Of a stretch of 64,000 bases of DNA, positions 4,801 through 14,330 are shown in pieces. The notes under the pieces are model-generated. The model was not told where the DNA came from, searched no databases, and saw only the letters and a program-made list of their open reading frames with translations. The position numbers and the translations under genes are program-made. The stretch is from a virus (Duplodnaviria; Caudoviricetes). The stretch is from IMG/VR virus record IMGVR_UViG_3300042391_001116, positions 1,309 to 65,308 of that record; one strand, given 5' to 3'. The number at the start of each line of letters is the position of its first letter. Position 1 is the stretch's first letter.

Positions 4801-6240
4801 TTAGTAACAATATTTCTTTAATTCATTAGCAATCCACTCAACAACTGGTGCAGCAACAGCATTACCAATCATTTTATAACGATTAGTATTGCTAATCTCT
4901 TTACCATTATCGGCAAATCTTGTATGGTCATCAGGGAATCCCATCAATCGCTCACATTCAATAGGTGTAAGCCTTCTTAGGATCAATTCTGGTGTGCATA
5001 CAGCATGCATTGACACAGTGTCTAATGTGTATGAGGGGTCATTTGGTTCACCAAACCCTTTTCCTGCTGGTCCAGCGGAGTCTGAGCGACCAATGATCGT
5101 GCCCTGAATGGGGATAGCAGTATGTTCTTCAGCAATCAATGGAACTTGATTACCACCAGTTCCCATTCTGCTCATAAGAGTAGGCACAATACCATCATCA
5201 TAAACACGAACATCATTAACCCTTGTACCATCAACAATTAGAACAGTTGAACGCGATTCACTATTGTTATCAAAAGCGTTCAAAGTTGGGCTAACGTCTT
5301 CTTGTCGCCAAACTTCTGGCGGTAAGTTACCGTCAGCATCCCTAGCACCAGAGCGAATAACTTTGACAAAAGATTCAATAGTGTGCATAACAAAGTTTTC
5401 GTCAGGTCGCTTATGGCTAGTAGCCCTGAATGTTGAACCGCCTTCTTGATAATTACCAAAACCAGTTTTGCCATAAAGAACAGGTTGTGCTACAGAATTA
5501 CCACCACTTTCAACACGCATTGTTGGGAATACTTCTTCAGATACTTGTGGATCTATTCCGTTTTTGTGATTGAATCCGTATGTTGGTCCGCTAACTTGAT
5601 CAGAGCCTGATAGAGCATGGGTGGAAGTTTGTTTCCTCTTCTTTCGGCTCTTCTTAAGATTCCCGTCGCTGTCTTCGGGGACAGGTAATATTTGTGTTCC
5701 ACATCTGCTAACGATTGTAGGACAGAAACTAGCAATAAGGAACAATCTTCTCCTTCTGTGTGGGACTCCAAACCATTGTGCATCCAAGATGTGCCATTCA
5801 ATTGCCAATGCCCCGATGTTTGCCATTTCGTCAATGACTGCTGAGAAGTCTTCTCCTTTATTACTTGTGAGGGCACCTGGTACGTTTTCCCAGATTGCGA
5901 TTTTTGGGTATTCATTTCCTGTTGCATTTCTCATCTCCTTGATGATTCTAGTCGCTTCGTAAAACATTGATGATCTATCACCATCAAGACCAGCGCGCTT
6001 CCCAGCAACTGACAAGTCCTGACATGGTGAACCAAAGGTAATCAAATTGACGGGCTTAATTTTTGCACCATCAACATCTTGAACATTAAAATATTTATCA
6101 GTATCAGGCCAATGCTTGTTTAAAACAGATTGACACGTTTTGTCCCACTCAACCTGCCAAACACTTTCCCAGCCAGCATTTTGAAAACCAAGATCAAAAC
6201 CTCCGACCCCAGCAAACAAACTTCCAAATGTTAATTCCAT
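4801..6240 (-). CDS. dcm: DNA (cytosine-5) methyltransferase with long variable region
   Basis: Motif I SLFAGVGGFD, IV GSPCQDLS, VI WENVPG, VIII HRRRRLF, IX RRLTPIECERLMGFP, X YKMIGNAV. Confidence 0.93.
   Translation of the reverse strand: MELTFGSLFAGVGGFDLGFQNAGWESVWQVEWDKTCQSVLNKHWPDTDKYFNVQDVDGAKIKPVNLITFGSPCQDLSVAGKRAGLDGDRSSMFYEATRIIKEMRNATGNEYPKIAIWENVPGALTSNKGEDFSAVIDEMANIGALAIEWHILDAQWFGVPHRRRRLFLIASFCPTIVSRCGTQILPVPEDSDGNLKKSRKKRKQTSTHALSGSDQVSGPTYGFNHKNGIDPQVSEEVFPTMRVESGGNSVAQPVLYGKTGFGNYQEGGSTFRATSHKRPDENFVMHTIESFVKVIRSGARDADGNLPPEVWRQEDVSPTLNAFDNNSESRSTVLIVDGTRVNDVRVYDDGIVPTLMSRMGTGGNQVPLIAEEHTAIPIQGTIIGRSDSAGPAGKGFGEPNDPSYTLDTVSMHAVCTPELILRRLTPIECERLMGFPDDHTRFADNGKEISNTNRYKMIGNAVAAPVVEWIANELKKYCY
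5553..5927 (-). CDS. nested alternative-frame ORF, M.EcoHK31I beta-subunit-like N-terminal region
   Basis: KTSQQSLTKWQTSG...WMHNGLE...CSLLLVSVL...YYLSPKTATGILRRAERRGNKLPPMLYQAL matches the beta polypeptide pattern as I recall it; starts near motif VI as in EcoHK31I. Confidence 0.68.
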   Translation of the reverse strand: MQQEMNTQKSQSGKTYQVPSQVIKEKTSQQSLTKWQTSGHWQLNGTSWMHNGLESHTEGEDCSLLLVSVLQSLADVEHKYYLSPKTATGILRRAERRGNKLPPMLYQALIKLADQHTDSITKTE

Positions 6241-7096: not shown

Positions 7097-8353
7097 TCAC
7101 TTACCTATATTTGAAGATAGCAAAAATTTATTTTCTAGATCCCAGATGGCTTGGTCTGTCGGCTTCTGGAAAATAGGTTGAGAAAGTAATGATCTATACA
7201 TTTCTTCTGGAACACGGTGAATTGGGTCATCCTTTGTAAACTGTATTCCATTATGTAGTAAATAACTTCCATTCCCCGTATACATTAAATAGAAGCTGCT
7301 TTTATGATCTAATTCTTTAAAAGATTTAATACCAACTCTTTTTACTAAATTGTTTAACATATAGTCAACTCTAGTTTGCCAATTATATTCTTCATAAATC
7401 AACGGTGCTTGTTTATAATAAAAATCGCATTGAGATGAAAAATCATTATAGGCATTTAACATTAAATTCATTAAAGATTCAAAATCTGCTAAAACAACTT
7501 CACCTTCAAAATAACCAGAATACGATGTTGGACCAATAGTAGAATCAATAATATTATTTTTAAAGTATTTATCGTAAGAACACCATCTACTTGTAGAAAT
7601 AACTGGCATACCAGTAGCAAGAGCCTGAAGAGGAATAAATCCAAATCCCTCACCCTCAGACGGATAGACAAGAACATCATGTTCATTGAATAACTGGATC
7701 ATTTCATCTCCAGATAAAGTTTTAAATATTTTATTAATGTTAGAAAATAAAGATGAAACACCATTATCACCATAGTACTGGTCGGTATGATACTTTAAAG
7801 TTAACTCAACATCATTATTATTACCAAAAAGAGTGATAAAAGCTTTTTCAACAAGATCAGCCCTTTTCCTAGGAGAACCAGAATCAACATGAAGAAACCT
7901 AATCTTACTTCCTTGACCTCTTTTAAATGGCTTCCATTTATCATCAATTCCATGTTCAAATACAAAAGTTGGTGTTTTAACTCCAGAGTTACCAACAGCA
8001 TCTGCTGCAAATTGGTTACCTACCCATATTTCATCAACCTCGTTCATTGAATCAATCCAATGAGACCACACCCTCGTTGTTTCTAAGTGAGTTCCATAAA
8101 TTTTGTATTGATGATCATAAAATTTATTAAAACTTGGATCACGAAAACTAGTCATAGTTTTTAAGTTATACCATTCTGGCTCCATATAAAACATTTGTAT
8201 TTGTGATGATGGAGAATTCTGCATCACTTTTAGCTTATTTTTTTTATATTGGAAGTTATTAAAATGCTCACAAATTTTGTAATAGCCATAAGAATATCCA
8301 TAAATGCCATTAGCATCTTTAATATGCTGGTCTGTATGCATTGAAAAAATCAT
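7097..8353 (-). CDS. GT4-like glycosyltransferase with extra C-terminal domain
   Basis: DEIWVGNQF, FLHVDSGSPRKR, VYPSEGEGFGFIPLQALATGMPVI. Confidence 0.88.
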   Translation of the reverse strand: MIFSMHTDQHIKDANGIYGYSYGYYKICEHFNNFQYKKNKLKVMQNSPSSQIQMFYMEPEWYNLKTMTSFRDPSFNKFYDHQYKIYGTHLETTRVWSHWIDSMNEVDEIWVGNQFAADAVGNSGVKTPTFVFEHGIDDKWKPFKRGQGSKIRFLHVDSGSPRKRADLVEKAFITLFGNNNDVELTLKYHTDQYYGDNGVSSLFSNINKIFKTLSGDEMIQLFNEHDVLVYPSEGEGFGFIPLQALATGMPVISTSRWCSYDKYFKNNIIDSTIGPTSYSGYFEGEVVLADFESLMNLMLNAYNDFSSQCDFYYKQAPLIYEEYNWQTRVDYMLNNLVKRVGIKSFKELDHKSSFYLMYTGNGSYLLHNGIQFTKDDPIHRVPEEMYRSLLSQPIFQKPTDQAIWDLENKFLLSSNIGK

Positions 8354-9270
8354 TACGACTCCATCAGGATTTTTTTGATCTCTTCTCTTTCAACATCGCT
8401 TAGATCAATAGATGACATACCATTCCACTTATTCTCGCCATAGGCATACCAAGCACCACGACGCTGAATAATATTGGCTTCAATTGCCATGTCAATAAGT
8501 TCACGTTCTGTATCAATCATACCCTTATCAGGAAGAACATAATAATAACCAGTTGTTCCAATAGTAGGAAGCTGCTTAGTTTTCTCAATTGTCCAAGTAG
8601 CGCGCTGACTAGTGATACGACTTGAGTCATCTCTCTCCATTTCCTTTTGTGACATAGAAAGAAATAGTTTAACAATGTTATGCATATTATGATGAACGGT
8701 ATTACCCATCTTTGCTTTGGTTACAGCAAACATTCCGCTTAAATCAACAGTTTGATGAGCGACAAACAGCATAATATTTTTTTCTTTATGAAGGTGATTA
8801 ACCAGCTTTTGCAAAAAGTAGCCTTGTGATCGTGCTTGTAATCCTAATGCTTTACCACCGTCAGGCTTGTCATAAAACTCTTCCTTAATAATATTAGAAA
8901 GACTATCAAACAAGAAGATGTGCTTCTCGTCAGGATGATTCAAATATGGTACAAGGCTCTTAAGAATATCTTCAACAATAGTTGATTGAATAACAACAAC
9001 ATCGCTAATATCAATTCCACATTTTTGAGCGTATACATCAGAATAAGAGTACTCTGAATCAATAATGACAGGTCGATAGCCCATCTTTTGTGCTTGAGAA
9101 ATAATTCTAAAACACATAGTTGTTTTACCAACCGATGGTGTTCCCCAAAATAAATGAGTTGCCCCGGAGTTAAGTCCACCACCTAAAGCCCTGTTTAATG
9201 CAAGGCTAGGTGTTGGAATAATTTCATGTTCAGGCATTTTATCGCCTTTACGCTTGTCTACAAATAACAT
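8353..9270 (-). CDS. recA: RecA/UvsX-like recombinase
   Basis: SLALNRALGGG, Walker A GTPSVGKTT, Walker B FLFDSL, C-terminal IQRRGAWYAY. Confidence 0.9.
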   Translation of the reverse strand: MLFVDKRKGDKMPEHEIIPTPSLALNRALGGGLNSGATHLFWGTPSVGKTTMCFRIISQAQKMGYRPVIIDSEYSYSDVYAQKCGIDISDVVVIQSTIVEDILKSLVPYLNHPDEKHIFLFDSLSNIIKEEFYDKPDGGKALGLQARSQGYFLQKLVNHLHKEKNIMLFVAHQTVDLSGMFAVTKAKMGNTVHHNMHNIVKLFLSMSQKEMERDDSSRITSQRATWTIEKTKQLPTIGTTGYYYVLPDKGMIDTERELIDMAIEANIIQRRGAWYAYGENKWNGMSSIDLSDVEREEIKKILMES

Positions 9271-9273
9271 TAT

Positions 9274-9768
9274 TTACTTTCTTTCTAAGACAACTAGTCT
9301 TCTCTTTGTATGGGGAACAAACCCCGGCAAATCCAAATCACAAAATTCAAAGTCCATTGCTACAGTAACCTTTTTATCAGTTGACTCTAGTATAGCACTC
9401 GCCTGTAACACACTAGGCTCATGCTCAACAGAATGTTCAATAATAACCACCCGAGCAGAATCCACCATAGCCTTAAAACAAGCCCACTCAGGCTCTTCCC
9501 CCTCAATTTCTAACCCCATAGCCATGATTCCACAGTTTGTTAGTTTTAAATCGCCAACACCGCCTTCAAACCAATCCTGAACGGAGCCATGGAAGGCACC
9601 TGTGATAGACTTCAAGGGGTCAATAGCAATCAATCTGTTATGGGTTTTGATAGTATTTTTATAAGCGCCTACATCAATCACGGCATCTAGGTCGTCGCCA
9701 AGGAAATACTCACAAATATGGTGTCTGAGCATGTATTCTTTGCTAACCAAATATTCCCATCTGTCCAT
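9274..9768 (-). CDS. possible class I SAM-methyltransferase-like protein
   Basis: VIDVGAY and IAIDP motifs; ATG at 9768 overlaps the upstream stop (TGATG). Confidence 0.5.
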   Translation of the reverse strand: MDRWEYLVSKEYMLRHHICEYFLGDDLDAVIDVGAYKNTIKTHNRLIAIDPLKSITGAFHGSVQDWFEGGVGDLKLTNCGIMAMGLEIEGEEPEWACFKAMVDSARVVIIEHSVEHEPSVLQASAILESTDKKVTVAMDFEFCDLDLPGFVPHTKRRLVVLERK

Positions 9769-10364
9769 CAGAAACCAACCTTTGGCATTATCAAGGCTGT
9801 ACCGCAACCTACAGGGAAATTCACCATGTCGTGATTATTCTCTGATGACCAATCCACTGCTGCTTTATAAGAGCCGATAGGCGGATGGTCTCCGTCAGAA
9901 GGGTTGTTTGTATCATGAATAGTTATAGCCCACTTCTTATGCTTATTCATTCGGCTTCCATAATGCTCAAGGTCACGATAGACCTGATCATAAGAATGGT
10001 CAGCATCAACATGAAGATAATCAATATCACTGAAACGCTCGTACACATCATCAGTCATGGCTTGATAAAGTTTTATATCCTCATAACCTTTGATTTCACC
10101 TTCATAAGTTGGCAAACCCCAAGGTCCAACATTCGCATCAATTAAGGAAACATTCGTATGAACAATCCTAAACTGCTTGACTAAATCTTGTTGAGCTTTA
10201 AGCATTAACTTTGGAACAAACCCAGCTCCTGACCCAAGACATACACAATTCTTTGCTTCTATTGAGTAGGGGATCCCATAATAAAAGATACCCATACCAA
10301 GATAGGAATTATATGCTCCATGAGACTCAGACCATTTTGATTCTTTTATGATTTCATCAAACAC
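9768..10364 (-). CDS. class I SAM methyltransferase (Methyltransf_24-like)
   Basis: LGSGAGF, LIDA, YLHVDADHSYDQVYRDL, ITIHDT; GTG start overlaps the dnaE stop. Confidence 0.82.
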   Translation of the reverse strand: MFDEIIKESKWSESHGAYNSYLGMGIFYYGIPYSIEAKNCVCLGSGAGFVPKLMLKAQQDLVKQFRIVHTNVSLIDANVGPWGLPTYEGEIKGYEDIKLYQAMTDDVYERFSDIDYLHVDADHSYDQVYRDLEHYGSRMNKHKKWAITIHDTNNPSDGDHPPIGSYKAAVDWSSENNHDMVNFPVGCGTALIMPKVGF

Positions 10365-13300
10365 TTTCTGGCACCTTAATCCCTTTCCTCTGAATGTAAT
10401 CTTGAATAGAAATAATTGAAGTATCAGTAGCAAGTTTATACGAGTCAAGACGAGTGAGTGCTTCTTTTTCAACAATCTTAGACATTTTTACAGCAAACCA
10501 GCCATTATCTTTAATAACATGCTTGATCTTTCCATACACCATGGGGAAAATAACAATCTTAATAATCTTAATACCATCCCAGGCGTAAAGATTAGCCATG
10601 TTCTTACCCTTAGCAGTCACAAAAGATCTACTACTGAACACGTGAACAAGCGCCTTATCTGTCTCTTCAGAGTCACAAATACCTAATTCTTCCTGATAGA
10701 GCCAGCTTAAGTCATGCTCAAGACCTTGGTCCATCATGGTAATTAACTCCATTATTTCAGAGTTATGGCACTCATAAGCATCACAGAACATATGAAGCGT
10801 TCTGTCCCCGATCAAGGCATAAATTAACTGCCTGTTTGAGATCTCAGCGTTCCTATCACAAAAGATCGTAGTTGAGCCAGATTGATCTTCTATTTCAACA
10901 CGGAGGTATTGAGGGGTTTTCTTGGTAGAACGCACCACAGCCTTCACAATGGTCAAAGGAGAGTTAATCTCATGGAAGTCCGCCAAAGGCTTCACATACT
11001 TATCAATCTCATTCTCATCCTGATTAAGATTGATAGCAAACCCCAAAATAGGCAAATAATACTTCTCATTATCATAAGCCGAAGTATAGCCAAGGCTCTT
11101 ATAAGCCCCAACCTTATCCAAGCTATCCCGAAGTTTAGTATTAACACGCTTCTTACTGCACTTGGCATTAAATTCCTCAATAGACGAAAAAGGTCTCAAC
11201 TCAAGAATCTCAGTAATAGCACTACCACCACAACCACTCACATTACGAAGCCCAAAACGAATACCATCATCATCAATAGAAAACGACTCATTAGACAAAT
11301 TCACATCAGGCGGATTAACCTTAACACCCATACGATTAGCCTCCATCAAATAAGCCGTAATTCTATCCTGAGCATCCTCATTATAAAGAAGCGACCAAAT
11401 AAACTCAATCGGATAATGAACCTTCAACCACATCGTCTGATACGACAACATAGAATAAGCAACAGCATGAGACTTATTAAACATATACAAAGCTGCTAAT
11501 TCAAACTCAGACCACATCTTCTCAGCAGCCTTAGGCGTAATGATAGCATTACTAATAAACTTATCACGATACTGATCAAAGTCGGCAGCATCACGTTTCT
11601 TACCAATGATCTTACGCAACTTGTCAGCCTCAGCCCAAGTAAACCCAGCAATACTCACAGCCATCTGCATCAACTGCTCCTGAAAAATAACCGTACCAAA
11701 AGTTTCCTTCAAAATACCCTCGACTGAAGGATGAGGATACACAGGCTTCTCCTTACCCTTCTTACAGTCAATATACTTCTGACCCTGAGACAACAAAGCG
11801 CCCGGTCTAACCAAAGCATTACTTACAGCAAGATCATTAAAATTAGAAATCCCCATACGCTCAATAAGATTCCTATAAGCCGAAGCATCAACTTGGAAGA
11901 TCCCAACCGTATTAGCATCATCAAAATTCTTATAAACAAGATCATCATCCAAAGCCAAAGAAAGATCCGTAACATCAACACCATGCCTCTCCTTAACCTT
12001 AGCCAAACAATCCTTAATAACCGAAACCATCTTCAAACCCAAAATATCAACCTTGATCAGACCAACCGCCTCAGCATCCTCCATATCAAAAGCCGTAACA
12101 ATAGAACGCTCATCATCACCACGATTCTTCCGACTCTCAACAGGACACACCTCATTCAGTGGCACAGACGACACCACCATACCAGCAGCATGCACACCAG
12201 AAGTACGAATCCGATTCTCCAACTTACGAGCAATAGGAATAATATCAGGATACTTAGAAGCAAACACACGCCCCTTAGCCGAAGCCTCCAACTCATCCAA
12301 AGTCTCAAAAAACGGCGTAATATTATTAATCTCCTCATACGGCACCTGATACACACGCGCAATATCCTTAATAACACTCTTAGCCTTAAACGTACCATAA
12401 ATAGAAATCGCGGCAACATTATCCTTACCCCAACGACCCCTCAAATACTGCTTAACCTCATCACGACGCTTATCCTCAAAGTCCAAATCAATATCAGGAT
12501 AATCATTACGCTCAGGATTCAAAAAACGAGAAAACAACAAACCATACTTAATAGGATCAACCTTAGAAATATCCAACAAAAAGGCCAACAAACTACCACC
12601 AACACTACCACGACCAGGACCACGCCCAACATTATTATTATCAGCCCATTTAATCAAATCCCAAACCATCAAAAAATAGTCAGAAAAACCAAGCCGAGCA
12701 ATAACCCCCAACTCCTCATCCAACCTAACCCCATACTCCTCAGACAACCCACGCCGACCAAGTTCAAACACAGCAATCTCACGCAAATACTCATCCGAAT
12801 CCAAAGCCTTCAAATACTTAGGCAACAACTTCCGCTTAACAGCAATCTCCGCAGTGCATTTTTGTGCCACCTCCATCGTGTTCTCTAAGATATCTGTCCT
12901 ATCCAAACCAACAGTACTAAACCACGATTGAATCTCTGAAGCAGAAGCGATATAAGGATTGATCTCATCAAAGCGCAAAAAGCGATCTGGATACATAGCA
13001 TTAATTTTCTCAATAGTGCTACCCTCATGGCGACAATTCTCTTTAGCCTTACGCAAGTCACCAGCGTTCAACGAAGGATACTGAGAGATCATCAGCAAAA
13101 CTTCCTCGTCACCACGATCATGAACTGTCGGGAAATGGCAGTCAGCAGTCGCTACAGGCTTCTTATTGAAAGCACTAGCCAAATCCAAGATACCTTTATT
13201 AATCTTAGGTGGATTCCATGCCTGTACTTCATAATAGAAGTCATCACCAAAGATTTTAATAAACCGTTCCGACAAATATTCAGCACGACTGGTGTTACCA

Positions 13301-13743
13301 GCATCAATAGCTTTTGCAATCGCACCGCCAAGACAGCCAGATAAAGCAACAATGTCATCATCAACCAAATCAGTTAATAGATCAAAGTCCACTCTAGGCT
13401 TGTAATAGAAGTTATTTGTCCAACCAATCTGGCTAGCTTTAAATAACTTCTTTAACCCCTCATCGTTCTTTGCTAAAAGAATAAGGTGAGATCTTTCATG
13501 ATGACCATCACCATCAGAGTTAACAGAATCAACAAAGTAAGCTTCAACACCAAACAAAGGTTTGACGTTAGTCTTTCTACAAGCATCTTGGAACTTTAAA
13601 ACACCGCCCATAGTTCCATGATCTGTTATTGAAGCAGCATACTGTCCATTGCTAGAAGCAATATTTGCAATGTCAGTTGGTGTAGACATTCCATCCAGCA
13701 AAGAATATTCTGAATGACAATGTAAGTGCACGAAATCAGTCAC
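10357..13743 (-). CDS. dnaE: DNA polymerase III alpha subunit (C family)
   Basis: PHP HLHCHSEYSLLDG, GRGSVGGS, PDIDLDF, GVHAAG, KVDILGL, FNKSHAVAY; no intein seen. Confidence 0.97.
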   Translation of the reverse strand: MTDFVHLHCHSEYSLLDGMSTPTDIANIASSNGQYAASITDHGTMGGVLKFQDACRKTNVKPLFGVEAYFVDSVNSDGDGHHERSHLILLAKNDEGLKKLFKASQIGWTNNFYYKPRVDFDLLTDLVDDDIVALSGCLGGAIAKAIDAGNTSRAEYLSERFIKIFGDDFYYEVQAWNPPKINKGILDLASAFNKKPVATADCHFPTVHDRGDEEVLLMISQYPSLNAGDLRKAKENCRHEGSTIEKINAMYPDRFLRFDEINPYIASASEIQSWFSTVGLDRTDILENTMEVAQKCTAEIAVKRKLLPKYLKALDSDEYLREIAVFELGRRGLSEEYGVRLDEELGVIARLGFSDYFLMVWDLIKWADNNNVGRGPGRGSVGGSLLAFLLDISKVDPIKYGLLFSRFLNPERNDYPDIDLDFEDKRRDEVKQYLRGRWGKDNVAAISIYGTFKAKSVIKDIARVYQVPYEEINNITPFFETLDELEASAKGRVFASKYPDIIPIARKLENRIRTSGVHAAGMVVSSVPLNEVCPVESRKNRGDDERSIVTAFDMEDAEAVGLIKVDILGLKMVSVIKDCLAKVKERHGVDVTDLSLALDDDLVYKNFDDANTVGIFQVDASAYRNLIERMGISNFNDLAVSNALVRPGALLSQGQKYIDCKKGKEKPVYPHPSVEGILKETFGTVIFQEQLMQMAVSIAGFTWAEADKLRKIIGKKRDAADFDQYRDKFISNAIITPKAAEKMWSEFELAALYMFNKSHAVAYSMLSYQTMWLKVHYPIEFIWSLLYNEDAQDRITAYLMEANRMGVKVNPPDVNLSNESFSIDDDGIRFGLRNVSGCGGSAITEILELRPFSSIEEFNAKCSKKRVNTKLRDSLDKVGAYKSLGYTSAYDNEKYYLPILGFAINLNQDENEIDKYVKPLADFHEINSPLTIVKAVVRSTKKTPQYLRVEIEDQSGSTTIFCDRNAEISNRQLIYALIGDRTLHMFCDAYECHNSEIMELITMMDQGLEHDLSWLYQEELGICDSEETDKALVHVFSSRSFVTAKGKNMANLYAWDGIKIIKIVIFPMVYGKIKHVIKDNGWFAVKMSKIVEKEALTRLDSYKLATDTSIISIQDYIQRKGIKVPESV

Positions 13744-13745
13744 TA

Positions 13746-14279
13746 CTATCCAATCTTCAATTCACTCAGTGAATTGATTGAGTTCAAACTCCCTATTAAG
13801 TAAGAATTATACCATGTCTTAAAAACATATGACGGTGCCGTTGTCATTGCCCGAACTTTATTTACTTCATATGGATTATCATCAACATACAAAGCAGGTC
13901 CAATTTTGTTAATAAAATTAAATTTCTCATACATATCACATACAATTACATCAGAGTACATGACGCTCCACTTATCAAGCCAAGTGTGTATAGCATTAAT
14001 AGAATTATCAGATCTTCTAGCCGTAATAAAAAAAATGTCATAGCCATTCATGAACCAATCATTGACGCTATGCCATGAGTCTTTAATAGGTAGCAAATCA
14101 TACCAAAAAGCTTTATTATCAAATAAATGCTCTAAACTTTCATCACCATAAGGTGTCAATAAAGCCTTGGCTATTGATTTAGATGTAATTTTAATATCTT
14201 TATTCTCAGCATACTGAACTAATTGTTTGCTAATATCTGTTAAAACTCCATCAAGGTCTAAACAAATTTTTTTATTCAT
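13746..14279 (-). CDS. HAD-family 5'(3')-deoxyribonucleotidase-like protein
   Basis: CLDLDGVLTD, FITAR, YVDDNP. Confidence 0.8.
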   Translation of the reverse strand: MNKKICLDLDGVLTDISKQLVQYAENKDIKITSKSIAKALLTPYGDESLEHLFDNKAFWYDLLPIKDSWHSVNDWFMNGYDIFFITARRSDNSINAIHTWLDKWSVMYSDVIVCDMYEKFNFINKIGPALYVDDNPYEVNKVRAMTTAPSYVFKTWYNSYLIGSLNSINSLSELKIG

Positions 14280-14282
14280 AAC

Positions 14283-14318
14283 GCCAGCCTTTGCTGGCAG
14301 GGTTTTACCCCTGCCAGC
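14283..14318 (-). promoter_or_regulatory. two mutually exclusive RNA hairpins between ssb and the HAD gene
   Basis: 10-bp stem 14293-14302/14309-14318 (loop 6) overlaps a 6-bp stem 14283-14288/14293-14298 covering the AAAGG just upstream of ATG 14279. Confidence 0.55.
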
Positions 14319-14330
14319 CTAAAGCATCAA

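Follow-up and report, generated by a model that had tools for sequence, protein, structure and literature searches.

The gene for a dnaE-type DNA polymerase III alpha subunit in an uncultured phage of the Caudoviricetes contains a block of almost two kilobases in which nearly every codon ends in G or T. The gene lies on a 64,000-nt stretch, positions 1,309-65,308 of the IMG/VR record IMGVR_UViG_3300042391_001116; we call this whole stretch the window and number positions within it. The block begins abruptly, ends more softly, and recurs with other borders in related phages. As an observation it is strong and confirmed. How it came about can be stated less firmly. With slightly less than even confidence, we favor a reading in which the block is a domain of strand-polarised substitution, produced by DNA synthesis whose start would lie at the sharp 5' edge.

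We express the bias as GT3, the fraction of codons with G or T at the end, and take the borders from a maximum-likelihood two-edge fit with support intervals of 2-lnL (log-likelihood). The gene and its block are:

10357-13743, minus strand: dnaE-type DNA polymerase III alpha gene, 1128 amino acids (list of open reading frames (ORFs), translation, Pfam)
10981-12855, minus strand: G/T-ending block, dnaE codons 297-921, 1875 bp, catalytic core of the enzyme, GT3 0.941
12838-12858, minus strand: sharp 5' edge of the block, support codons 296-302, resolved to 7 codons
10927-10998, minus strand: softer 3' edge, support codons 916-939, resolved to 24 codons

The protein is of the DnaE type: PHP (residues 6-174), polymerase core (330-569), fingers (573-733) and HhH (806-887) domains follow one another in order, with Pfam matches PF02811, PF07733, PF17657 and PF14579 at E-values of 1e-17 to 1e-77.

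Inside the block 588 of 625 codons end in G or T (0.941); GT3 is 0.668 in the remainder of dnaE and 0.628 genome-wide (log-likelihood ratio 73; binomial P = 1.6e-75 against the genome-wide value). Among 1745 windows of 40 codons taken from all ORFs, mean GT3 is 0.628 (standard deviation 0.104) outside the block and 0.938 inside, and every other ORF of the 65-kb record stays at or below 0.75 overall. A preliminary description of this DNA, based on hand counts, had placed a bounded block of ~1.9 kb at 10985-12852, dominated by AAG, GAG, TTG, CGT and GGT. The fit agrees, all five codons are among the commonest, and the counts (codons ending in A or C: 4 among the 100 from 12852 to 12553, 23 among the first 60 of the gene) are exact. 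A second, short patch thought comparable, at ~9400-9520, is ordinary: 35 of its 40 codons end in G or T, but equal windows occur elsewhere in the genome.

On the coding strand the GC skew is 0.37-0.45 and the T-over-A skew 0.21-0.30 at 11001-13000, with means of 0.42 and 0.27 over 150-nt windows of the block. Four-fold degenerate sites in the block are 2% A, 3% C, 24% G and 72% T; the same columns in unbiased close relatives are 27% A, 10% C, 9% G and 54% T. The commonest codons are AAG, GAT, TTG, GCT, GAG, GGT and CGT, and the use of AAG, TTG and CGT runs counter to the genome's own codon preferences. The final A-ending codons before the 5' edge are GCA CAA AAA. Runs of three or more G number 12.3 per kb in the block versus 4.6 in the flanks. 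The predicted folding energy of the antisense, A/C-rich strand is halved (-28 versus -51 kcal per 300 nt), and no reduction is predicted in the block for the sense RNA.

The bias has a by-product on the opposite strand:

11731-12888, plus strand: antisense ORF, 385 amino acids, by-product (ORF list, genetic code reasoning)
10882-11499, plus strand: antisense ORF, 205 amino acids, same by-product (ORF list)

With G or T at each sense third position, the codon-antisense frame begins its codons with C or A, so no stop is possible. The two ORFs follow automatically, and we reject an overlapping antisense gene. In practice, such blocks yield long spurious antisense ORFs that gene callers may misreport. 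They also make diverged genes look more alike in their DNA and distort analyses of codons and of phylogeny.

Does the block occur in relatives, as the preliminary description proposed to ask? We compared the window with 80 related IMG/VR loci (L-numbers) and a further relative, G001. The block is shared by the closest relatives, L001-L003 and L056, and is uniformly weaker (0.81) in L010, at 95% amino-acid identity. In L006 and L008 (83%) the G/T bias likewise rises near codon ~300, the fitted start in L008 being earlier, at codon 220; L005 has a faint block. The patch is absent from L004/L048, L007 and L009. In a sister clade, here clade A (L015, L018, L023, L027, L030-L034, L044 and L052), patches either cover the whole of dnaE (96-100% in L023 and L052) or fade from its 5' to its 3' end. 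Short patches appear in two further groups, starting at codon ~250 (L072, L080) and ~516 (L065). Streptomyces phage Jay2Jay, with the same gene order at 38% amino-acid identity, has no bias. The family is a natural series in one orthologous gene: no patch, short patch, 1.9-kb block, fading gradient and whole-module patch.

Gene borders do not confine these patches. In clade A, G+T rises abruptly where the NT5C-like gene begins, reaches its maximum shortly before dnaE and falls over 4-6 kb and five or six genes. The patch there takes in a small hydrophobic ORF, an inserted Dcm methylase gene, dnaE, a methyltransferase gene and recA. Counterparts of the window's downstream methyltransferase-like and RecA-like genes lie inside the patch in L023 and L052. 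In the window itself the genes on both sides of dnaE are unbiased:

13746-14279, minus strand: NT5C-like 5'-nucleotidase gene, directly upstream of dnaE, GT3 0.64
8353-10475, minus strand: methyltransferase-like genes and RecA-like gene, downstream of dnaE

The edges tend to share a polarity. Read along the G/T-rich strand, seven of nine fitted lineages have a sharper edge at the 5' than at the 3' side. At the 5' edge in the window, 29 nt (12845-12873, codons 291-300) are identical in the window group and in the distant L005, though synonymous sites are otherwise saturated between the two; this stretch is possibly a conserved DNA element or a recombination junction.

The block and its flanks agree in their relatives. 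The nearest ones by amino-acid distance are L004/L048 (0.12-0.15) for block and flanks alike, and the closest protein relative of the block is the unbiased L004, at 0.12. Lineages biased over the whole gene are not nearer in the block, at distances of 0.29-0.30. Amino-acid identity of the window in N-terminal flank, block and C-terminal flank is 0.85, 0.88 and 0.74 to L004, 0.72, 0.71 and 0.58 to the wholly biased L023, and 0.71, 0.73 and 0.54 to the unbiased L020; it does not drop across the block edges. Block identity is 0.70-0.71 to biased clade A versus 0.70-0.74 to unbiased distant lineages. L006 and L008 share the edge near codon ~300, yet have the most distant block proteins of the subclade (window-L006 0.17). 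Because block protein and flanks share nearest relatives, foreign import is refuted by segment-wise amino-acid distances, which indicate that the block arose in place. In a separate observation, amino-acid and synonymous divergence jump among the closest relatives at dnaE codons ~960-1127 (~10360-10865), 0.10 versus 0.02, and recombination may have had a breakpoint shortly past the 3' edge of the block.

The bias acts on nucleotides and not on codons alone. Where codon positions 1 and 2 in the block differ between the window and unbiased relatives, it is the window that has G or T in 64 cases versus 25 (p = 4e-5); the counts are 26 versus 25 and 24 versus 20 in the flanks and ~50:50 in unbiased pairs. 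Clade A has the same excess at these positions, gene-wide. The excess non-synonymous changes are mainly transitions (48 versus 14). At the synonymous first position of leucine TTG:CTG is 82:4, a bias equal to that at third positions.

Another recurrent skew patch bears on which strand matters. It lies in a dCMP deaminase gene of relatives, which was not found in the window's incomplete record:

G001 67600-68208 (= L085 7600-8208 and L099 2095-2703): dCMP deaminase gene (HAE and PCxxC motifs, PF00383)
L100 3998-4603: dCMP deaminase gene
L102 4004-4642: dCMP deaminase gene

In G001 this gene is opposite in strand to dnaE, and 84% of its codons end in A or C; the homologues in L100 and L102 have 77-83%. 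The sign is reversed relative to the gene, and same-strand neighbors are ordinary. Since the G001 gene is encoded on the other strand and ends its codons in A or C, the same absolute strand is G/T-rich at both places, and the sign follows the DNA strand. Provided that the deaminase and dnaE patches share a cause, this would exclude causes at the level of codons and of mRNA.

How does the substitution process differ in the block? We counted changes within the window's subgroup per synonymous site, polarised by L010:

Keto-to-amino changes: 21/525 in the block, 46/255 in the flanks (0.22x, p = 3e-10)
Amino-to-keto changes: 20/41 in the block, 34/107 in the flanks (1.5x, p = 0.06)

Added together, the per-site rates come to 0.53 in the block and 0.50 in the flanks, and at equilibrium they give 92% G/T; the observed figure is 94%. 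Across six independent close pairs, keto/amino divergence is 3-5x lower in strongly biased windows, a drop that is partly a saturation effect in the more diverged pairs. In six close pairs, divergence by G-T and A-C transversions, within a class, is similar in biased and unbiased windows (ratios 0.4-1.7). Amino-acid divergence is not raised in the block: the distance to the outgroup L009 is 0.196 for the window and 0.193 for L004. As the rate sums are alike and the transversions unchanged, there is no local mutation storm, and local hypermutation is not supported on these grounds together with the lack of excess amino-acid divergence and a keto/amino turnover below that of the flanks. At 66 sites of the block L010 has A or C and its four relatives G or T, with 5 sites in reverse; judged by these differences the skew system is still moving, not static. 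Some 37 A/C-ending codons are left in the block, of which ~16 are unchanged in all five sequences of the window group. These rates would be met in one of two ways. Either transitions are partitioned between the strands at ~93:7 in the block (~64:36 in the flanks), or there is weak selection against A and C, with a scaled S of ~2. Composition tests (G:T ratio at four-fold sites, arginine and isoleucine codons) do not separate mutation and selection at equilibrium.

The mechanism that we favor takes the first of these. Fixed transitions in codons 297-921 would be nearly all amino-to-keto (C to T, A to G) on the DnaE-coding strand, with very few contributed by the complementary strand, so that positions left free by the protein would drift to G or T. 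For this the DnaE-coding strand would have to be regularly left single-stranded, or be re-synthesised with G-T type mispairs. DNA synthesis would always begin at the same place, the sharp 5' edge, and proceed the way the gene runs over a varying length; possible sources are a D-loop, an origin, or a nick followed by strand displacement. The G/T sign could come from deamination of the exposed strand or from misinsertion of the G-T type into the nascent strand. We infer, then, that the physical cause is single-strandedness or polar synthesis, with initiation at the 5' edge. We prefer this account because patches ignore gene borders, move between lineages, keep the sign of a DNA strand, and have a sharp 5' and a soft 3' edge. 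That geometry fits a displaced or nascent strand with a fixed start. Exposure by end resection is rejected, for it would sharpen the 3' end of the G/T-rich strand, the opposite of the observed edge.

Several known systems bear on this account. In vertebrate mitochondrial DNA, replication by strand displacement leaves one strand single-stranded, where it deaminates, and the heavy and light strands differ in composition as a result. In the phage block, as there, C-to-T and A-to-G changes have enriched a single strand for G and T at its synonymous sites (third-position A ~2% and C ~3%, versus 27% and 10% in unbiased relatives), at comparable strength, and clade A has a gradient with distance from a start point. 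Unlike the mitochondrial case, the phage domain occupies 2-6 kb within a double-stranded genome of ~100 kb, not the whole genome, and the window's block is a plateau with no detected rise in the forward rate (forward ~1.5x, backward 0.22x). The leading-strand skew of bacterial chromosomes has the same G/T sign and is likewise independent of gene orientation; it is weak and chromosome-wide and switches at origin and terminus, whereas the phage patch is near-saturating and local. The origins of phage T4 that act through R-loops (oriF/uvsY and oriG/gene 34) and the intragenic origins of lambdoid phages offer a parallel: initiation inside the coding region of a replication or recombination module would fit the position of the block. 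Those origins have a promoter and an unwinding element, or iterons, neither of which we found at the block, and to our knowledge they do not leave such a compositional footprint.

A number of findings count against the favored mechanism. The 5' edge has no iterons and no AT-rich unwinding element, and promoter-like sites are at chance level (22 versus 20.5 expected), so the proposed start lacks the marks of either kind of origin. No repeat family or tandem array occurs at 12.7-13.1 kb beyond a 24-nt coding duplication (12702-12749), and no motif common to the patch starts of different lineages was found at their edges. The genome-wide GC skew turns near 59-60 kb, away from the block. The block of the window lacks a gradient and coincides with the catalytic core domains. 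The rate shift, with backward changes down 4-5x and forward changes up ~1.5x, fits weak selection or another fixation bias equally well. The isoleucine codon ATA is found 0 times in 153 in the biased regions of clade A versus 31% in its sister L014, and arginine shifts from AGA to CGT; losing ATA and AGA needs transversions, so simple deamination is insufficient. The orientation independence depends on a single gene family, the dCMP deaminase. Finally, we know of no precedent in a double-stranded DNA phage for a polarity of at least 93% of all transitions. The preliminary description had proposed an intragenic origin or D-loop site. That idea is compatible with the sign and with the geometry of the edges, and stays unproven against the missing origin elements and the distant skew turn.

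Standard models of replication, transcription and codon selection do not predict a near-saturating bias on one strand within a few kilobases. If its cause is mutational, a patch marks where, and in what direction, DNA synthesis starts. A wider proposal is that the patches mark fixed start sites from which strand-displacement-like synthesis runs in one direction, a replication or repair intermediate of the mitochondrial kind, and that the same process may underlie the bacterial intense-skew regions known as GRINS. We hold this to be doubtful. If it were true, start sites could be read from sequence alone and would be seen to move between closely related phage lineages.

The strongest alternative, unlikely in our judgement but a serious competitor, is natural selection. 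Here the G/T-rich strand or its A/C-rich complement would be kept for some DNA property, and synonymous A and C would be weakly deleterious. An A/C-rich template unable to fold when single-stranded is one example; a G/T-rich strand that preferentially loads the phage RecA-like recombinase is another. Keto-to-amino changes 4-5x rarer and amino-to-keto changes ~1.5x commoner are what S ~2 gives, with no excess of amino-acid or transversion divergence, and selection would also account for the depletion of ATA and AGA through transversions and for the residual A/C-ending codons kept throughout the window group. The halved folding energy of the antisense strand and the RecA-like gene two to three genes downstream agree with the two examples. 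Yet L004, L007 and L009 do without a patch, borders vary by lineage, and the clade A patch crosses gene borders and spans unrelated genes. No known function requires 2-6 kb of such DNA, an S of ~2 per site is hard to maintain in a phage population, and the folding of the sense RNA is unreduced. Were the cause selective after all, the patch would point to a function of strand-asymmetric DNA that is not yet known.

The block also resembles GRINS, the published but unexplained regions of intense skew. GRINS are defined as regions of >500 bp with mean absolute GC and TA skew >0.15 that repeat, at >80% DNA identity, another region of the same cluster, and they were linked to gene conversion in polyketide synthases (Nivina et al. 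2021, PMC8256042). Their authors found such regions to be frequent in replication, recombination and repair genes, saw single-copy skewed regions too, and proposed a misinsertion-type cause in the nascent strand, leaving the mechanism open (PMC8256042). This is the sole published description of the kind; literature searches on skew and strand asymmetry, and on later GRINS work, yielded no account of such a phage patch. Like GRINS, the block is kilobase-scale coding DNA (1875 bp) with intense GC (0.42) and TA (0.27) skews that are correlated over dnaE (r = 0.76), strongest at third positions and abrupt in their changes, and that affect amino-acid usage. Unlike them it is single-copy, belongs to the polymerase gene of a phage and keeps one sign from end to end, and among related phages its borders are both inherited and displaced.

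Could a process of the GRINS type be at work, in which rounds of gene conversion or of repair synthesis produce the skew and even it out among homologous copies, in this case those of co-infecting related phages? We think this improbable. The skews match, the gene is of the kind in which GRINS authors often found such regions, and the bias raises the nucleotide identity of diverged lineages (window-L023 0.76 in the block versus 0.70 in the N-terminal flank). But blastn of the block against the 65-kb record, which is ~63% complete, returns the block alone, and protein distances give no sign of block transfer among carriers, window-L006 being the subclade's largest. With the mechanism of GRINS itself lacking, the name is also more a label than an explanation.

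Another account, which the preliminary description raised, has the transcript of dnaE itself form an R-loop that displaces the coding strand, which then deaminates. Its sign is right, and the coding-strand GC skew and the abundance of GGG+ runs favor R-loops. The rest goes against it. The block begins 890 nt into the gene at no promoter-like site above chance, the relatives' dCMP deaminase gene is biased on the template strand, loss of A from the RNA-like strand gives no stabilisation of an RNA:DNA hybrid, and substitution input is not raised. We regard an R-loop origin as quite improbable.

Translational codon choice or another property of the mRNA, such as tRNA supply or avoidance of Rho or RNase, is a very improbable cause. 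In its favor, third positions show the strongest bias and the sense RNA has little C. Against it, the block starts and stops within one gene, positions 1 and 2 are shifted too, the mRNA of the deaminase gene has the opposite sign, AAG, TTG and CGT oppose the genome's preferences, and no tRNA genes were found in the window; this explanation is close to refuted. Patches of relatives include short non-coding stretches as well, although the 'intergenic' G/T-rich stretches of clade A are weak evidence as neutral sites, since the greater part of that DNA is probably peptide-coding. These are short and very G/T-rich (76-90%), lie between the NT5C-like gene and dnaE, and are absent from the window:

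L023 2887-2991: clade A G/T-rich stretch
L052 1385-1591: clade A G/T-rich stretch
L031 1831-1948: clade A G/T-rich stretch; others occur in the clade

They probably encode a small hydrophobic peptide in which a D/N-W-[RK]-[LV]-G...W motif is conserved.

To a segment recombined in from a uniformly G/T-biased genome, an alternative voiced in the preliminary description, we give almost no credence: the sharp borders and the existence of the wholly biased L023 and L052 would suit it, but the nearest relatives common to block and flanks, the steady identity across the edges, the lack of any closeness to clade A in the block, and the recurrence of the ~300 edge in the subclade's most distant block proteins do not. 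Nothing supports avoidance of a modification motif, also suggested there, since the bias touches all synonymous A and C. Two further candidates were rejected. Mutagenesis like that of diversity-generating retroelements would leave an adenine-specific pattern, which is ruled out by the involvement of both A and C and by the conserved protein; there is also no RVT_1 match in the record and no repeat copy. Break repair at an intein or homing site finds no trace in the best 120 homologue clusters, which are of 1104-1139 amino acids and have no intein domains.

The record is 65,308 bp long with an estimated completeness of ~63%; related contigs are as long as 100-111 kb, and the phage is one of ~100 kb. 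Nearly all genes of the record lie on the minus strand. The replication module runs in the order DnaB-like helicase, DnaG-like primase, a gene of unknown function, NT5C-like nucleotidase, DnaE, two methyltransferase-like genes and RecA-like recombinase. Among cultured phages the nearest relatives belong to the Stanwilliamsviridae; these Streptomyces phages share the gene order but are only 38% identical. Going by that synteny, freshwater Actinobacteria are a guess at the hosts.

Elsewhere in the window, at 5520-5970 on the minus strand, a mild patch of opposite sign with raised G+C occupies codons 91-240 of a Dcm methylase gene (4801-6240). GT3 is 0.20-0.47 there (mean ~0.34) versus 0.63-0.70 on both sides. 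It overlaps a nested ORF that had been flagged in the preliminary description, and may be a foreign segment or a patch of the A/C type.

A G+C-rich hairpin lies at ~14293-14319 (minus strand), between a 212-amino-acid gene and the NT5C-like gene. Hairpins of this kind occur upstream of the NT5C-like gene in L015, L032 and L044 also, at the same position with a different sequence, and the skew patch of clade A begins just past the hairpin. In five loci of that clade (L015, L018, L031, L034 and L044) a C5-cytosine DNA methylase gene of 350-423 amino acids is inserted directly ahead of dnaE, after the NT5C-like gene. The skew is weaker in the 5' part of this gene than around it, which would suit a recent insertion. 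In L031 an insertion of higher G+C (1-1310) lies upstream of the module and contains three small ORFs that start with M(A/T)DDI(V/I)(T/Q)RL.

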